64,000 bases of DNA, taken from Candidatus Magasanikiibacteriota bacterium (GTDB lineage Bacteria > Patescibacteriota > Patescibacteriia > Magasanikbacterales > UBA922). The notes under the pieces were generated by a model. That model searched no databases and was not told where the DNA came from. It worked only from the letters and a program-made list of their open reading frames with translations. Positions within the stretch are counted from its first letter, which is position 1. Each line of letters begins with the position of its first letter. Below, piece by piece: positions 17,209-44,670 of this stretch. The stretch is taken from the NCBI GenBank assembly GCA_018651085.1, contig JABIEQ010000014.1:97807-161806 (forward strand). Reading direction: 5' to 3'. A program made the position numbers and the translations under genes.

Positions 17209-17258
17209 TCAAAAAAAATTATAACATAACAAAATAGATATGCCCATAAAAAAATACC
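17209..17258. repeat. Copy 2 of the roughly 46-nt direct repeat
   Basis: See copy 1. This copy overlaps the minus-strand terminator hairpin. Confidence 0.55.
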
Positions 17259-17280
17259 CCTACTCATAGAGTAAGGGTAT
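17247..17280 (-). terminator. Rho-independent terminator, minus strand
   Basis: ATACCCTTACTC-tat-GAGTAGGGGTAT hairpin followed by TTTTTTT on the minus strand. It lies inside the 115-aa ORF 17025-17372 from the ORF track. Confidence 0.65.
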
Positions 17281-17484
17281 TTAATATATTCCTTTTCGTC
17301 CTGCAACAATCTTTCAAATATGGACTCATCAGTACCAAACACATTGGTATAAGGCGAGAGTGGGTAGAACACTCTCTGGGGGGGGGATCTCCTTGCTAGG
17401 AGAAAAAAAGAACACTAGGCTCTTCCATGTCTACCGTCCTTTTACAGGACCATGAAAGAGCGCCTCACGCGCCGGCATTGCCGG

Positions 17485-17703
17485 TCAGATGTTGGGGGCC
17501 TCGCCGCCGACATCACTCAAAGAAAAAATAATGATCATCGCCGTTGCACGCTCCAAATGTCGTTTCACTAATACTCCTTGGTCCATTATTATAACCCACA
17601 GACCGGAGGGAAAGCGCGGAGGCCTAGACCGCTTCGAAAGGCATTTCAGATAGTAATCATTCCTATATAAAATGCTTTTCGAAGGGTTTCTAATACCATC
17701 CAT
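17485..17703 (-). CDS. GC-rich small-protein family, member D (72 aa from the first ATG; N-terminally short relative to A and B)
   Basis: MDGIRNPSKSILYRNDYYLKCLS...GLWVIIMDQGVLVKRHLER aligns with the D-G ... [YW][MV]V[WL] ... ER core of the ORFs at 24306, 26018 and 44600. GC is about 50% against about 35% background. A consensus promoter abuts the ATG, so the mRNA is leaderless. Confidence 0.55.
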   Translation of the reverse strand: MDGIRNPSKSILYRNDYYLKCLSKRSRPPRFPSGLWVIIMDQGVLVKRHLERATAMIIIFSLSDVGGEAPNI

Positions 17704-17712
17704 AGACAAAAA

Positions 17713-17741
17713 AATATATCATATAATGAAAGAATTGTCAA
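17713..17741 (-). promoter_or_regulatory. Sigma70-type promoter TTGACA-17nt-TATATT driving member D
   Basis: Read on the minus strand: TTGACAattctttcattatatgaTATATT, then 9 nt, then ATG. Confidence 0.6.
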
Positions 17742-24073: not shown

Positions 24074-24261
24074 AAAAAAATAAAAAGGCTATATGTAGAC
24101 AGCCTATAGGTATTATCTCACCTTTTAAGAAAGACTATTTCTTATAAAGATACTGTAAAGATAACCCGCCCACTCCAAAAGCCTCTAAGAGAACAAATAA
24201 TAGTGTATACACACTCGTTCATATATATAAGACGATAGAAACGCAAAAACGTTACATTTTG

Positions 24262-24290
24262 TTGACAATTAAGGCAAAAATAACTAATAT
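24262..24290 (+). promoter_or_regulatory. Sigma70-type promoter TTGACA-17nt-TAATAT driving member A
   Basis: TTGACAattaaggcaaaaataacTAATAT, then AAGGAG adjacent to the ATG at 24306. Confidence 0.6.
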
Positions 24291-24305
24291 CAGAATATAA
24301 GGAGT

Positions 24306-24797
24306 ATGCGATCTTCAACCCACAACCGAAGGTGTACCGTGAAGAGGTTCATGGATTACCACAAGTTCCCGGTGAGGCAAATCAGACAAGCTCGTCTGAG
24401 ATTCAACATCAAGAGACAGGGCGGTATCTGGTACCACGTCAGAGGATGGTACCCACGAAGAATGGTAGGAAAGGAAGAACAGCACCTCGAAGTGTTCTGT
24501 TCTCAACCATACATGATGTGGATGATCGAGAACAACTGCACGGACAAAACCTTGGCAAGCCAGTGGAGCGATGGCAAGGACTACTATGGAGAAATCTACC
24601 TGTACCAAGAAGGACAACAACAACTTAGTGTCTACATGGTCTGGGTGAATCCACAGTTTGGGCAAAAAGAGGAAAGACCTCTTCCCCCAAAAAAGGACTT
24701 GCAACTCATCGCAGCAAAGCGAGCAACAAGAGGTCCAGGAAGTGACATGTGGGAATACATCAACAACAACCACCCACGTGAAGAACTCGACGACTGA
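24306..24797 (+). CDS. GC-rich small-protein family, member A (163 aa, basic N-terminus)
   Basis: About 49% GC. It shares WY-x3-R-x-VG-x3-H and SVYMVWVNP...KEER with member B (WYKADRVGRNPH..., HVWMVLDKEDKER). Its own promoter is upstream and a terminator is downstream. The overlapping ORFs on the other frames and strand are GC artefacts. Confidence 0.7.
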   Translation: MRSSTHNRRCTVKRFMDYHKFPVRQIRQARLRFNIKRQGGIWYHVRGWYPRRMVGKEEQHLEVFCSQPYMMWMIENNCTDKTLASQWSDGKDYYGEIYLYQEGQQQLSVYMVWVNPQFGQKEERPLPPKKDLQLIAAKRATRGPGSDMWEYINNNHPREELDD

Positions 24798-24846
24798 GAA
24801 GATCGCGCCCCGAGGGACATTGTCCCCCGGGTTGCGAATAATATTA

Positions 24847-24873
24847 ATAAAACCGGCAAGTAGCCGGTTTTAT
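24847..24873. terminator. Rho-independent terminator
   Basis: AACCGGC-aagta-GCCGGTT hairpin followed by TTTAT, preceded by a GGGACAtTGTCCC palindrome. Confidence 0.75.
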
Positions 24874-24895
24874 CATGTATACAAACAATGTAGAT

Positions 24896-25021
24896 CTATG
24901 AACTCGCTTCACCACCTTCAGACTTATTCGCCTGACAACTTCCACCACAACAAGGTTTACACGCACCACAGTCACACATCATGTCAGCTTCTTTTTCAGT
25001 ATTACAGTTTGAACACATCAT
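24896..25021 (-). CDS. Small Cys-rich peptide, metallothionein-like (41 aa, 9 Cys); not in the ORF track
   Basis: My own translation gives MMCSNCNTEKEADMMCDCGACKPCCGGSCQANKSEGGEASS. It is convergent with member A. Confidence 0.4.
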   Translation of the reverse strand: MMCSNCNTEKEADMMCDCGACKPCCGGSCQANKSEGGEASS

Positions 25022-25098
25022 AAAGATATATGTTACTTAATATATTAAACTCCCTTTGTATGTATTATTATAAAGGGTTTTATCTAACACATCAAGAG

Positions 25099-25566
25099 TT
25101 AAGATAATGCCTTATTTTTAAGCATTTCTACAAAACTATCCACATCCTTTTTTTGATTTACTTGAAATACAAATGAAAATTTCCCTTTTGATGAGTCGAT
25201 CATAAGTGTTGGTTGTTTTCCTTCTTTAAAATCAACCTCAGTAATGTCAGAAAAAGACAATTGAGCATTCTTTTTATGAGCAGACAACATACCTTCTGGT
25301 CCTTTTTCCATTAAAGATTTTTCATTTCGAGCAAGTTCTTCTTGAAACTTTCTAATAATCGGTGTTGCAGCAGCTATTCCAACGGCGGCTCCGGCTCCCC
25401 CAACAACACCACCACCCGTAGTAGCACTATTAATATGACTAAAGGCTTCTGGTAATCCTCCAACATTCCCGGTATATATAATGGATAATCCAGTGTCAGA
25501 AAGCACGAGACTAAACACCTTTTTAAACCCAAACGACAGTTTCCTTACAACTTTATGAAGATACAT
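25099..25566 (-). CDS. Hypothetical protein with a Gly-rich segment and a PH/GRAM-like C-terminal region
   Basis: A 155-aa ORF with native AT-rich composition, embedded between GC-rich cassettes A and B. Confidence 0.5.
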   Translation of the reverse strand: MYLHKVVRKLSFGFKKVFSLVLSDTGLSIIYTGNVGGLPEAFSHINSATTGGGVVGGAGAAVGIAAATPIIRKFQEELARNEKSLMEKGPEGMLSAHKKNAQLSFSDITEVDFKEGKQPTLMIDSSKGKFSFVFQVNQKKDVDSFVEMLKNKALS

Positions 25567-25660
25567 ATATCGTATGCATAAAAATAACCTTTCTATAGTA
25601 ACATAAAAATATGATATGCATAAAAATAGCTTTACTTAGCCAAATAAATGCAATACACTA

Positions 25661-25689
25661 TTGACAAAGTCATTATTTTGTGCTATAGT
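25661..25689 (+). promoter_or_regulatory. Sigma70-type promoter TTGACA-17nt-TATAGT driving member B
   Basis: TTGACAaagtcattattttgtgcTATAGT. Confidence 0.65.
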
Positions 25690-25696
25690 GTGTTGT

Positions 25697-26017
25697 TACA
25701 ATGAATGATTCGACAGGACCAATGGGTGACGTACATTAATACGTACTCTATTGGTTCTGTTGAATCAAAGAAGACCGAGATTTCTACGATGCGAATAAAG
25801 CATACCAATCGTAGACCTTACTCGCTGTATTTCCATACCGTCACTCAAGACAGGAATGGATAAATACACCGGATGCAGGAAAAAATCTCACAACCAATCA
25901 AGAATATCCCCCCTTATGTATCTCGCTCGATACAAAAGGCATCCTAGAAGGCATGACAATCTAGGTATAAGTCGGATGCCCGTCTGGTAAACGGGACTAC
26001 CTCCCTCGGAGGTTATC
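25697..26017 (+). other. Structured 5' leader of about 320 nt (possible cis-regulatory RNA) upstream of member B
   Basis: About 45% GC, with several perfect hairpins (CTACGAT..ATCGTAG; CCCGT-ctggtaaa-ACGGG). GGAGG sits 7 nt before the ATG and no convincing ORF is present. Confidence 0.4.
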
Positions 26018-26374
26018 ATGAGCACGAAGGTTACAGGAGAAGAGCTCAAAGAGATGTTCGAAGGAATGAACCCTCCCGAAGGTTCACCAACATGGACAAA
26101 ATGGGACCTTTTCCTAGGCATCCTCGGAAAAGAGTACCAATGGTACAAAGCAGATCGAGTGGGAAGAAACCCCCACGATTTCTTAGTCTCGTGGATGAGC
26201 GTCGACGGAAATCTCATCGAAATCGAGTCCTCCGCCCCAGACTTCAGTTGGGAGCTCCAGGTCATGAGGAGCAACCAACCTCACGTGTGGATGGTCCTCG
26301 ACAAAGAAGACAAAGAACGTGAAGAAAGCGCGTTCAGCATCCTCGCCGAGATCATCAACGCTCGTCTCACATGA
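26018..26374 (+). CDS. GC-rich small-protein family, member B (118 aa, acidic)
   Basis: About 52% GC, with a GGAGG SD. It shares the core motifs with A, C and D. Confidence 0.7.
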   Translation: MSTKVTGEELKEMFEGMNPPEGSPTWTKWDLFLGILGKEYQWYKADRVGRNPHDFLVSWMSVDGNLIEIESSAPDFSWELQVMRSNQPHVWMVLDKEDKEREESAFSILAEIINARLT

Positions 26375-26560
26375 CCAACTGCTTAGCTCAAAGCATAAAT
26401 TGAGCGGGTAGACGTATAGCTGTATTGCTGACAATCCTTGTCAGTCCGATACAGATACGTTGCCGAGTACCCGTGAACATCCTTCACAAAAACTCGGTCC
26501 TTCCAAAATATCTTTCTCTCTATAAAAAAGAGGAAGCCATTTCAAAAGGCCTAGAAATAA

Positions 26561-26592
26561 AAAAGACATTGCTCACACAATGTCTTTTTTTA
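26561..26592. terminator. Rho-independent terminator, bidirectional (ends cassette B and atpC)
   Basis: AGACATTG-ctcaca-CAATGTCT hairpin flanked by an A-run and a T-run. Confidence 0.75.
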
Positions 26593-26606
26593 ATTTATAA
26601 AATAGA

Positions 26607-27020
26607 TTAAACATTCCGATACTTTCTCCCAACACTTGAACGTACAATTTCTTTTTCTATCTTTGCTTGAAGCCGTGCAAAATCGATATCAAGCATTTTT
26701 TCTTCTTTTGCAAATAATTCTTCTGCTCGTTTTTTCGCAAGTTCAGCGCGATCAACATCAATCTCATTTGATCGTTCAGCAGTATCAGCTAATACATAGA
26801 CAATACTATTTGGTCGAATTTCAACCACTCCGGTAGAAATAGCCAAATTCACCACATCATTACCTTTATGGATATTCAATTCTCCAGCACGAAGAGCAGA
26901 CACAACAGGAATATGCTCTGGGTATACGGTAATCGCACCAGCTTGAGTTGGAATTGTCACTTTATCAATTGAGTCTTTATATAAGACTCCTTGAGGGGTA
27001 ACAATCGTAAAAGTAATCAT
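26607..27020 (-). CDS. atpC: ATP synthase F1 epsilon subunit
   Basis: A 137-aa ORF, last gene of the atp operon, with a beta-sandwich followed by helical hairpin. Confidence 0.8.
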   Translation of the reverse strand: MITFTIVTPQGVLYKDSIDKVTIPTQAGAITVYPEHIPVVSALRAGELNIHKGNDVVNLAISTGVVEIRPNSIVYVLADTAERSNEIDVDRAELAKKRAEELFAKEEKMLDIDFARLQAKIEKEIVRSSVGRKYRNV

Positions 27021-31849: not shown

Positions 31850-31938
31850 ACAAAAGTCATAATTAAATCGTTGTAAGGAGGGTGTAGATGAAATTCAGTT
31901 TCATCTATACCCTCCGCGCAAACGCGAAAGAGGATGAT

Positions 31939-36738: not shown

Positions 36739-37002
36739 ATATATTATATATCATGATATACTTTGTATCGAGACAACGTTGGTACACTTAAACGAGTTCC
36801 CATACGAAAGTATGGTCCTAAAAGCTGCCGCCTGTAACAAGGTGTGAAAGCACCACAGGAAAGGTGAACGCTGTATAGGTACGCCAACTGGGGGCTGAGG
36901 GAATTGTTTCGTATGGTCAAAGGCACTATCACGGAAGAACACTTACCAAAGAACCTTTTTGCACCACGAGAGAGCGTCTTCTCCCCCACGTCTCTCTCAT
37001 TT
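36739..37002. ncRNA. Candidate structured ncRNA of unidentified class, in a GC-rich intergenic block
   Basis: A 264-nt gap between two co-oriented genes at about 50% GC. It carries a perfect hairpin with a GAAA loop (CCATAC-GAAA-GTATGG), an alternative pairing partner TTTCGTATGG 90 nt downstream, and a GAGAGAG..CTCTCTC stem. No family-like ORF is present. Confidence 0.35.
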
Positions 37003-37671
37003 TTATGAAACGACAATAACAAATTCTCCTTTCGCGGGAATATTCATTTCAAGAATTTCAGACATTGTTCCACGATATATTGTTTCAAACTTTTTTGTTA
37101 ATTCTCGACACACACAAACTTGTTTTTTTTCATCAAGTCCCTCGGCTAATTGCTTGAGGGCTTTTTCTATCCTATGACACGATTCATAAAACACGACCGT
37201 ATGTGTTGTAGCACAAACCCTATCAAAAAATTGCTGTCGACGTTTCTTATGAGGTGGAAATCCTAAAAACGAAAATGAATCTAACCGAAAGCCACTAATT
37301 GATAGGGCTGTTACAACGGCTGAAGCACCAGGGATAGGCACAATAGACACATCAGGAAGTTCATGCCTAACCGCGAACACTAGTTCACCACCAGGATCAC
37401 TAATTCCGGGAGTCCCAGCATCAGTAACAAGCGCAACATCATCTCCTTGGCGAAGCATATCCATAATCTCATCCGTTTTCTTTTGAGCACTATGCTGATG
37501 GTAGCTTCTTGCATGAGTATCAATATTATATCGAGAGAGTAATCTTGATGTCACTCGTGTATCTTCACAAAAAATCACTTCAACTGCTTGAAGTGTATCA
37601 ATGGCTCTCTCAGAAAAATCCCCAAGATTTCCAATAGGCGTAGCGACGATATATAAAGTAGGATTAGTCAT
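37003..37671 (-). CDS. rsmI: 16S rRNA (cytidine1402-2'-O)-methyltransferase
   Basis: Tetrapyrrole-methylase fold with YIVATPIGNLGD and VTDAGTPGISDPG. Start taken at MTNPTLY. Confidence 0.85.
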   Translation of the reverse strand: MTNPTLYIVATPIGNLGDFSERAIDTLQAVEVIFCEDTRVTSRLLSRYNIDTHARSYHQHSAQKKTDEIMDMLRQGDDVALVTDAGTPGISDPGGELVFAVRHELPDVSIVPIPGASAVVTALSISGFRLDSFSFLGFPPHKKRRQQFFDRVCATTHTVVFYESCHRIEKALKQLAEGLDEKKQVCVCRELTKKFETIYRGTMSEILEMNIPAKGEFVIVVS

Positions 37672-44188: not shown

Positions 44189-44208
44189 AAAAACACCCCT
44201 TAAGGGTG
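44184..44208 (-). terminator. Rho-independent terminator of cassette C, minus strand
   Basis: CACCC-ttaag-GGGTG followed by TTTTTTT on the minus strand. It overlaps the fmt stop codon. Confidence 0.7.
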
Positions 44209-44300
44209 AACAAATGTCTGTGCAGGAACCCCCAAGCCGCTACACAGACGGTGTGGGGTTGAGGGTTTCTGCGAATTGCGGGCTGTTCGAGCGGCCGACC

Positions 44301-44600
44301 TTAGTTGGTCGGGTATTCTTTCAGCTGACGCAAAGATCTTTCCGTGAAGTCCCACGGACGCCGGGGATTGCTCATGAAAACAACCCAGTACGTCTCAGTG
44401 ACCTTGCCAGTGTCGTCACCATCGCCAGTGTCGTCACCATCGTCAATGTCGTCACCATCGTCAATGTCGAAAGTCATCGCGCCCTCTGCACGACAAAAAT
44501 CGATGAGATCATCATGATTAAGAGGGAAATCTCTCTCCCTCAACACGATGACTCTGGCAGGGCAAGGACCGGACGAAACCGGCCGGAAATCAGCGAACAT
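44301..44600 (-). CDS. GC-rich small-protein family, member C (99 aa, acidic, with a DDGDD repeat tract)
   Basis: AGGAGG SD 7 nt before the ATG, about 55% GC. TYWVVFMSNPRRPWDFTER aligns with the family core. The opposite-strand 136-aa ORF is rejected. Confidence 0.65.
   Translation of the reverse strand: MFADFRPVSSGPCPARVIVLRERDFPLNHDDLIDFCRAEGAMTFDIDDGDDIDDGDDTGDGDDTGKVTETYWVVFMSNPRRPWDFTERSLRQLKEYPTN
44401..44469. repeat. Tandem 18-bp repeat, about 3.5 copies of GTCGTCACCATCG(C/T)CA(G/A)T
   Basis: Read directly from the sequence. It encodes (D-D-G-D-D-I/T)n within member C. Confidence 0.85.
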
Positions 44601-44641
44601 AACGTGCCTCCTATGGGCTTCTAGAGAAAAGCTGACAAAAA

Positions 44642-44670
44642 AATATACCACAAAAACCCTCTTTTGTCAA
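44642..44670 (-). promoter_or_regulatory. Sigma70-type promoter TTGACA-17nt-TATATT driving member C
   Basis: Read on the minus strand: TTGACAaaagagggtttttgtggTATATT. The -35 lies inside the CCCTCTT..AAGAGGG palindrome. Confidence 0.6.

Follow-up and report, generated by a model that had tools for sequence, protein, structure and literature searches.

Stem-loops that act as 5′ stabilisers are established in the ompA and papA leaders of E. coli and in the aprE leader of B. subtilis, and both stabilising and processing roles of 5′ hairpins have been established (reviewed in PMC3997798). The element described here is a leader of about 320 nt, which occupies positions 25697–26017 on the + strand of a 64,000-nt stretch of chromosome from a Candidatus Magasanikiibacteriota bacterium (assembly GCA_018651085.1, contig JABIEQ010000014.1, positions 97,807 to 161,806; hereafter the window) and stands before a small open reading frame (ORF), ORF B. 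The leader, ORF B, and the 3′ untranslated region (UTR) that follows it form a single-gene unit called cassette B. This unit resembles the ompA, papA, and aprE mRNAs in that a long leader carries a stable hairpin close to its 5′ end, a strong Shine–Dalgarno (SD) sequence follows, and the mRNA holds a single gene. It differs from them in that its hairpin, H1, is much longer (27 bp), lies 8–11 nt from the predicted 5′ end, and is unrelated in sequence, and in that the role of H1 is predicted. RNase III-processed leader hairpins are another related group, known from the pnp and rnc leaders of E. coli, the N leader of phage lambda, and the early mRNA sites of phage T7, and their cleavage can alter mRNA stability or translation. 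H1 shares with them at least two helical turns of double-stranded RNA (dsRNA) in a 5′ leader.

The mRNAs with structured 5′ UTRs and long 3′ UTRs include B. subtilis hbs (PMC5737220) and S. aureus icaR (PMC3868564). They resemble cassette B in having a small gene in a mostly untranslated transcript, pairing that blocks the SD, and structure at both ends, while icaR differs in carrying its anti-SD in the 3′ UTR, whereas that of cassette B lies 4 nt upstream of the SD. Extended intergenic regions (IGRs) of high GC content in AT-rich genomes are a source of new structured non-coding RNAs, as set out in the GC-IGR/DIMPL papers (PMC6429828, PMC8723152, PMC11109978). The leader and the 3′ UTR of cassette B, together with a neighbouring unit, cassette D, would be selected by that approach, but the motifs of those papers rest on recurrence and covariation across genomes, and the cassette B element is a singleton. 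Translational riboswitches and RNA thermometers (ROSE, fourU) also hold the SD in a local hairpin that ends a long structured leader. The corresponding hairpin here, H6, differs from a thermometer in consisting of six perfect Watson–Crick pairs (−7.9 kcal/mol at 37°C) with no weak or mismatched pairs, and it matches no Rfam family of aptamers or thermometers. We take the habitat of the host organism to be at about 10°C, where the H6 helix would remain closed. The kind of element is known, namely, a structured leader with an SD-sequestering hairpin, while the sequence itself is an orphan.

The leader is probably a private control region of ORF B that corresponds to no known riboswitch or attenuator. 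It follows a sigma-70-type promoter, TTGACA-17-TATAGT (25661–25689, + strand), that agrees with the consensus at 11 of 12 positions and has a TGn extended −10 element. The −35 hexamer TTGACA (25661–25666) is separated by 17 nt from the −10 hexamer TATAGT (25684–25689), and the start site predicted from the sequence falls at approximately 25695–25698. The ATG of ORF B at 26018 is 328 nt 3′ of the −10 hexamer, in agreement with the promoter and the distance of approximately 330 nt given in the initial annotation of this DNA. Sites that reach at least 11 of 12 consensus positions number nine in the window against 4.2 ± 2.1 in shuffles, an excess of about twofold, and three of these nine directly precede the GC-rich cassettes B, C, and D. 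No promoter-like site was found between 25740 and 26017, and nothing comparable stands nearer to the ORF B ATG.

The leader is folded far beyond chance, with a minimum free energy (MFE) of −106.5 kcal/mol compared with −76.9 ± 4.8 kcal/mol in dinucleotide shuffles (z = −6.2). In a scan of 80 segments of 320 nt (40 positions on two strands; median z of −0.7, 5th percentile of −2.8), the segment at 25601 was an extreme outlier and the most structured one sampled. The leader without H1 still reaches z = −3.6, and both strands of the region fold better than shuffles. The leader is A-rich with a GC content of 43%, while the window as a whole has 36.6% and the adjacent host intergenic DNA has 24%. 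The initial annotation had described the leader as structured and moderately GC-rich, and both points are borne out. Taken as a whole, its observation holds for the promoter, the distance, the stems, and the GC content, but not for its statement that there is no plausible ORF, and it missed the dominant hairpins.

Two ORFs tile the leader, one of 52 codons (25705–25863) and one of 44 codons (25856–25990), and the absence of a plausible ORF is therefore not literally true. The leader is nevertheless non-coding because it has no codon periodicity, no usable SD, and start codons that lie in stable helices. The chi-square test for 3-nt periodicity gave p = 0.34 for the leader, 2e-5 for ORF B, and 1e-7 or less for native genes. 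The small ORFs start within H1 and a hairpin of domain 2, and H1 buries the AUGs at 25701 and 25705. A 12-codon ORF from 25701 terminates in the loop of H1, and the 44-codon ORF terminates 9 nt 5′ of the anti-SD. A leader-peptide or translational-coupling model was also considered and was dropped on the same grounds (no SD, no periodicity, buried AUGs).

Helix confidence was taken from the partition function, with helices considered above a pairing probability (P) of 0.7; the well-defined ones have P of 0.9–0.98. H1 (25706–25767, + strand) is a 27-bp hairpin with the loop CAUUAA and an energy of −35.8 kcal/mol, made up of 23 Watson–Crick pairs, four G·U pairs, and two 1-nt bulges. It ranks third in stability among 25,572 overlapping 70-nt segments from both strands (mean of −9.6, sd of 4.4) and has a z of −9. 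Read on the − strand, the same hairpin has −25.6 kcal/mol; the + strand is better by 10 kcal/mol because all four non-Watson–Crick pairs are G·U on the + strand and C·A mismatches on the − strand. This bias fits selection on an RNA transcribed from the promoter at 25661–25689. H1 begins approximately 10 nt (8–11 nt) 3′ of the predicted start site. For RNase III, whose length criterion for dsRNA is about 20 bp or more in a near-continuous helix, it offers 27 pairs with two 1-nt bulges.

Domain 2 (25777–25889, + strand; z = −4.5; P values of 0.94–0.98) is a branched structure closed by GAGAUU/AAUCUC, and it holds a CUACGA(U)/(A)UCGUAG hairpin (25784–25814) and a 22-pair hairpin (25816–25879). 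The CTACGAT/ATCGTAG stem of the initial annotation is found here, with 25784–25790 paired to 25808–25814. It is followed on the same strand by H3, a 10-bp hairpin of CCUUAUGUAUC and GAUACAAAAGG (25912–25939, P = 0.97), and H4, a 6-bp hairpin of CCUAGA/UCUAGG (25943–25965, P = 0.90). The second stem noted earlier, CCCGT/ACGGG, also exists as H5 (25979–25995, + strand; 25979–25983 with 25991–25995), but its loop has 7 nt instead of 8, and this 5-bp stem appears in one MFE structure with P < 0.7. There is no U-tract after H5, which is hence not a terminator, and H6 is likewise without a U-run. H6 (25999–26013, + strand) is the 6-bp hairpin ACCUCC-CUC-GGAGGU with −7.9 kcal/mol and P = 0.98. It pairs the entire SD GGAGG (26008–26012), 5 nt 5′ of the AUG, and the predicted probability of the SD being unpaired is approximately 0; by a cruder measure, ORF B ranks within the lowest tenth of 70 genes in how accessible its SD is. 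The two dominant features of the leader, H1 and the SD-sequestering H6, had both been overlooked in the earlier description.

ORF B (26018–26374, + strand) encodes an acidic, Trp-rich protein of 118 aa. Its GC contents at codon positions 1, 2, and 3 (0.53, 0.38, and 0.61) follow the protein-like order GC1>GC2<GC3, its start is canonical (GGAGG-5 nt-ATG), and its RNA has a fold z of −3.3. Its codon usage is alien to the window, with GC at third positions (GC3) of 0.61 and C at third positions (C3) of 0.39 against medians of 0.24 and 0.07. From these sequence features, ORF B looks like a genuine gene. A word-indexed search of 5.8 billion proteins returned only ORF B itself, and HMMER run in full against 1.84 billion cluster representatives gave no homologue; two sub-threshold matches were rejected as repeat artefacts. 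Similarly, no match was found in Pfam, PHROGs, PADLOC, NCBIfam, or the PDB sequences. The AlphaFold single-sequence model is poor (pLDDT of 48) and inadequate for a fold search.

Downstream of ORF B, the transcript continues in a 3′ UTR of approximately 220 nt, whose structured part (26375–26556, + strand; z = −7.1, no periodicity) consists of four consecutive hairpins, including one of 21 pairs at 26411–26461. It ends at a bidirectional intrinsic terminator (26559–26590) with a 13-bp stem and T-runs on both sides, common to cassette B on the + strand and atpC on the − strand. The predicted transcript, which the promoter (25661) and the terminator (26590) delimit, is approximately 900 nt long, and with 357 nt in the ORF, 60% of it is non-coding; its overall fold has a z of −9.3. 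A possible pairing between the 5′ and 3′ parts (25773–25783 with 26489–26499, 11 nt, 91%) is not preferred in the full-length fold. The leader, ORF B, and the 3′ UTR are alike in composition, A-rich with roughly 43–50% GC, in contrast to the 24% of host intergenic DNA, and the UTRs are therefore considered part of the same foreign unit as ORF B.

The window is a segment of a bacterial chromosome in which the majority of genes lie on the − strand, and cassette B lies next to the F1Fo ATP synthase operon, on its downstream side, with atpC at 26607–27020 (− strand) and atpD, atpG, and atpA farther on. NCBI lists ORF B as 'MAG: hypothetical protein HN726_03530 [Candidatus Magasanikbacteria bacterium]' (MAG, metagenome-assembled genome), a name that assigns the organism to the Candidate Phyla Radiation (CPR). 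Of the relatives whose DNA downstream of atpC could be read, the two closest, with AtpC proteins 74% (L021) and 69% (L023) identical, have a homologue of the next conserved gene, p155, 110–130 nt after atpC and lack the cassette, while the atpC–p155 gap in the window is 1,040 nt. Cassette B is also absent from three more distant relatives (L024, L033, and L034), and none of the AtpC relatives fetched at 58–74% identity (L021–L024, L033, and L034) carries it. An AtpC scan of genome contigs returned Ignavibacteria only, at 33–41% identity. Since p155 directly follows atpC in relatives without the unit, the sequence comparison indicates that cassette B, leader included, is a lineage-specific insertion. 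Searches of phages and plasmids with blastn and tblastn gave no match. Around the cassette, no terminal inverted repeats and no flanking direct repeats or target duplication were found, and no recombinase, transposase, or integrase domain occurs in the ten proteins scanned between 20601 and 30944. A mobile-element end (IS200/IS605-type hairpins, a miniature inverted-repeat transposable element, or an integron attC) and a retron msr/msd were considered and rejected, there being no recombinase or reverse transcriptase and the ends being unmatched; H1 also has no sequence relation to the 3′ UTR hairpin.

Three NCBI MAGs carry this DNA, as do many contigs of marine metagenomes, including several from Saanich Inlet / Line P samples. 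The longest contig found with this atpC measures 863 kb. The layout around ORF B and ORF A, the gene of a sibling cassette, is alike in all 21 + 23 contigs read. The loci whose DNA was fetched (L001–L018) show 100% identity across as much as 10 kb, except for one single-nucleotide polymorphism (SNP) in the leader, G25875C in two of them (L016 and L018), and another two SNPs outside it. As the population is in effect clonal, these copies allow neither covariation analysis nor a conservation test. A search with a 20-mer of H1 gave a single match in metagenome contigs, to a contig that agrees with the window at 100% across the cassette, and none in viral contigs. One 1,634-nt contig (ENA OREN01076623, fetched as L004 and L035) was considered as a variant context and rejected, as it is probably a low-coverage chimera outside 25215–26575. 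Its first 262 nt and last 11 nt have no match to the window, and on the right, the break is located within the loop of the 26559–26590 terminator hairpin.

The initial annotation had suggested a riboswitch-like element, an attenuator, or an independent small RNA (sRNA), and had named an Rfam scan as a check. No family was matched: Rfam 15 gave 0 matches in the whole window at the gathering score, and at E ≤ 10 over 24100–26650 it returned noise only (miRNA and sRNA models far below their gathering scores), with none inside 25715–26017. No homologue was found anywhere searched. The attenuator idea fails in that there is no intrinsic terminator on the + strand of 25697–26017; on this strand, terminator-like sites occur only as a weak site within ORF B and as the genuine terminator at 26559–26590. 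The short ORFs also provide no attenuator leader peptide, as they lack an SD and periodicity and have their AUGs in helices. Similarly, there is no 3′ end signal between the leader and ORF B that would make the leader an independent sRNA. With no known family and no terminator in the leader, the element is not a described riboswitch class, a classical attenuator, or a terminated sRNA. No alternative anti-anti-SD pairing that competes with H6 was identified, and a translational switch is possible given the fully paired SD in the model fold. What stands of the earlier interpretation is a long structured non-coding RNA behind a near-consensus promoter, folding better on the transcribed strand, while the riboswitch, the attenuator, and the sRNA are not supported in the form proposed. 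In addition, no tRNA or tmRNA genes were found.

Three other cassettes in the window, A, C, and D, have the same architecture of a TTGACA-17-TAnnnT promoter, a GC-rich body, and an intrinsic terminator, and they are over-structured as well (z = −4.4, −4.5, and −5.6). Cassette A (24262–24875, + strand) has a TTGACA-17-TAATAT promoter (10/12) and an ORF of 163 aa (24306–24797; 111 aa in the NCBI version) with a GC3 of 0.57, for which no homologue turned up among 5.8 billion proteins. Nine nucleotides of its start-codon region (24308–24316) are perfectly complementary to the bases right after its stop (24798–24806), and two strong hairpins lie at 24806–24875 (−40 kcal/mol as folded on the − strand). 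Cassette C (44190–44670, − strand) encodes an acidic protein of 99 aa with DDGDD-type repeats (44600–44301; GC3 of 0.57) and starts with GGAGG-6 nt-ATG. The −35 hexamer of its promoter (44670–44642, 11/12) spans one arm and the loop of a CCCTCTT/AAGAGGG hairpin, and its 3′ UTR is very stable (44216–44285, −36 kcal/mol as folded on the + strand). Cassette D (17255–17741, − strand) gives a GC-rich transcript of approximately 440 nt from a TTGACA-17-TATATT promoter (17741–17713, 11/12) to a terminator at 17252–17282, has no codon periodicity (p = 0.87; fold z = −5.6), and carries a 26-bp hairpin near its 5′ end (17632–17684). We regard it as a candidate for a new non-coding RNA; a 27-codon stretch (MKRHLERATAMIIIFSLSDVGGEAPNI) behind an AAGGAG is a possible ORF. 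Cassettes C and D have TATATTTTTTTGTC in common at the −10 hexamer and start site. The initial annotation had called the other cassettes leaderless or short-leadered, which is true of A (approximately 10 nt) and C (approximately 35–40 nt); D has no convincing ORF.

In GC3, the window has three outliers, namely, ORFs A, B, and C. No Rfam family was found for cassettes A/B, C, or D at E ≤ 10, and no paralogues of the leader or of the ORFs occur within the window; the non-coding parts of the four cassettes are without similarity to each other. Excess RNA structure is a property of whole units, because it extends to ORF B (z = −3.3), its 3′ UTR (−7.1), and cassettes A, C, and D (−4.4 to −5.6). This argues for excess structure as a general property of these foreign units and not a special mark of a sensor in the B leader. 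A further unit was seen in the relative L033 (AtpC 63% identical), in which an unrelated island of approximately 70% GC lies beside the atp operon at approximately 340–1000 in a genome of 45% GC. It has a TTGACA promoter inside a terminator hairpin, then GGAGG-ATG and a 179-aa ORF on the + strand (380–919) whose N-terminus is hydrophobic and which matches no Pfam family; the opposite strand was annotated instead by the gene caller. Judging from this island, alien single-gene units appear to recur in this clade.

For the B leader, we give about an even chance to a structured 5′ UTR, specific to this lineage, with a role in mRNA stability or processing and in the repression of translation. It would act in cis and post-transcriptionally, within a single-gene, foreign-looking unit between atpC and the next conserved gene. 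H1 would set the fate of the mRNA, either as a 5′ stabiliser against 5′-end-dependent nucleases or as an RNase III-type processing site. H6 would keep the ribosome-binding site of ORF B closed as a translational brake, so that translation may be low unless a protein, a trans RNA, a processing event, or a ligand opens the helix. Several points weigh against this proposal. H1 lies 8–11 nt from the predicted 5′ end, farther than in classical stabilisers, which reportedly tolerate only a few unpaired 5′ nucleotides according to the work of Belasco and Bechhofer. Domain 2 is about equally stable on both strands, and the low SD accessibility of ORF B is not unique among the genes of the window. A leader of 320 nt with five or six helices exceeds what a stabiliser and an SD hairpin need, which leaves domain 2, H3, and H4 unaccounted for. 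The helices have no covariation support, as no homologue was found and the sole SNP, G25875C, is uninformative. Finally, everything rests on computation, and the start site is a predicted one.

This further structure would accommodate a new lineage-restricted riboswitch or protein-binding translational switch, with domain 2, H3, and H4 as the sensor and the SD hairpin as the expression platform. A long, GC-enriched leader with well-defined helices in an AT-rich genome and a fully sequestered SD speak for it, and stability functions alone leave much of the structure unaccounted for. We nevertheless consider a switch very unlikely: there is no Rfam match even at E ≤ 10, no anti-anti-SD pairing, no homologue and so no conserved aptamer core, no function assigned to ORF B and so no candidate ligand, and excess structure in ORF B, the 3′ UTR, and the sibling cassettes as well. 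That shared structure, with a z of −9.3 over the whole transcript, could instead mean that the RNA of approximately 900 nt is primarily functional, or dual-function, with ORF B secondary or untranslated. A transcript that is 60% non-coding in a compact genome is compatible with such a role, as are the structured cassette D of approximately 440 nt with its own 26-bp 5′ hairpin and no coding signal, and an ORF B that has no homologue and a pLDDT of 48. The periodicity (p = 2e-5), the GC1>GC2<GC3 order, and the canonical GGAGG-5 nt-ATG of ORF B go against it, as do the lack of similarity between the non-coding parts of the four cassettes and the lack of an Rfam family, and we rate it as decidedly unlikely. 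A broader reading, in which cassettes A–D represent an undescribed CPR class of lineage-specific, strongly promoted, GC-rich RNA modules with hyper-structure over their full length and selection on the fold itself (dual-function RNAs or domesticated copies of structured RNA replicons), and the leader is a new regulatory RNA that senses a ligand or protein with the SD hairpin as its expression platform, appears to be highly improbable.

The leader could also be an incidental relic, non-functional foreign DNA that came in with ORF B, such as a decayed upstream gene or a palindromic mobile-element end, with hairpins that are inverted repeats at the DNA level and play no part as RNA. The lineage-specific insertion, the alien composition, the folding of both strands beyond shuffles, and the two residual ORFs that tile the leader are compatible with this, and conservation cannot be shown. 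It is made unlikely by H1, whose four mismatches are all G·U on the transcribed strand (by estimate, a chance of at most approximately 0.06 even if all were transitions) and which comes just after a near-consensus promoter, and by H6, which pairs exactly the SD. In addition, terminal inverted repeats, a target duplication, and a transposase were all not found, and a pseudogene signal is absent (the best Pfam E of 0.058 is below the gathering score, and there is no periodicity). The strand bias of H1 also bears on whether the upstream promoter serves ORF B at all. Transcription could start near the ATG, which would make the leader an untranscribed spacer or a separate short transcript, as the start of the ORF B transcript is known by prediction alone and 4.2 sites of at least 11/12 are expected by chance. 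This is the least probable of the alternatives, since 25740–26017 holds no promoter-like site, the promoters of C and D (TTGACA-17-TATAnT, 11/12) and A (10/12) each stand at a GC-rich boundary, and the H1 bias fits transcription from 25661–25689.

Several neighbouring features were also recorded. The p155 gene (25099–25566, − strand) encodes a conserved protein without an assigned function or a Pfam match that has a Gly-rich hydrophobic segment. Its homologues in L023 (3270–3731) and L021 (1200–1433), 54–56% identical, directly follow atpC. Because cassette B splits p155 from atpC, p155 is expected to have its own promoter in 25567–25700, divergent from that of B. A 42-nt tandem direct repeat (25551–25634) lies here, with units that are 74% identical and each contain TATGCATAAAAATA (25573 and 25615). 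It is 5′ of the −35 hexamer of B and covers the p155 start codon, overlapping the start of that divergent gene, and it is possibly an UP-like or regulator site or a portion of the leader of p155. A 41-codon Cys-rich ORF (24896–25021, − strand; MMCSNCNTEKEADMMCDCGACKPCCGGSCQANKSEGGEASS), called by several pipelines and without a family match, lies between cassette A and p155. The atpE–atpF intercistronic region contains a near-perfect 17-bp hairpin (31877–31915; 16/17 complementary, −34.7 kcal/mol for the surrounding 70-nt segment), which reads GGAGG and ATG on the + strand and probably belongs to the mRNA of the − strand operon as an intercistronic structure. Finally, a 92-codon ORF at 36744–37022 (− strand), with a GC3 of 0.45 against the median of 0.24, is possibly a further small gene of foreign origin.

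Although statistically robust, the element is a singleton from a clonal population that is uncultivated, and it is best regarded as a candidate, not an established new RNA class. The four alien, over-structured promoter-to-terminator units within 64 kb are possibly more informative than the leader alone, and they hint at a recurrent route by which reduced genomes acquire and express foreign or new genes. We know of almost nothing on gene regulation in CPR bacteria, no systematic literature search having been made. Should the leader truly gate an orphan gene of horizontal origin, it would provide an instance of post-transcriptional control by RNA in these bacteria.

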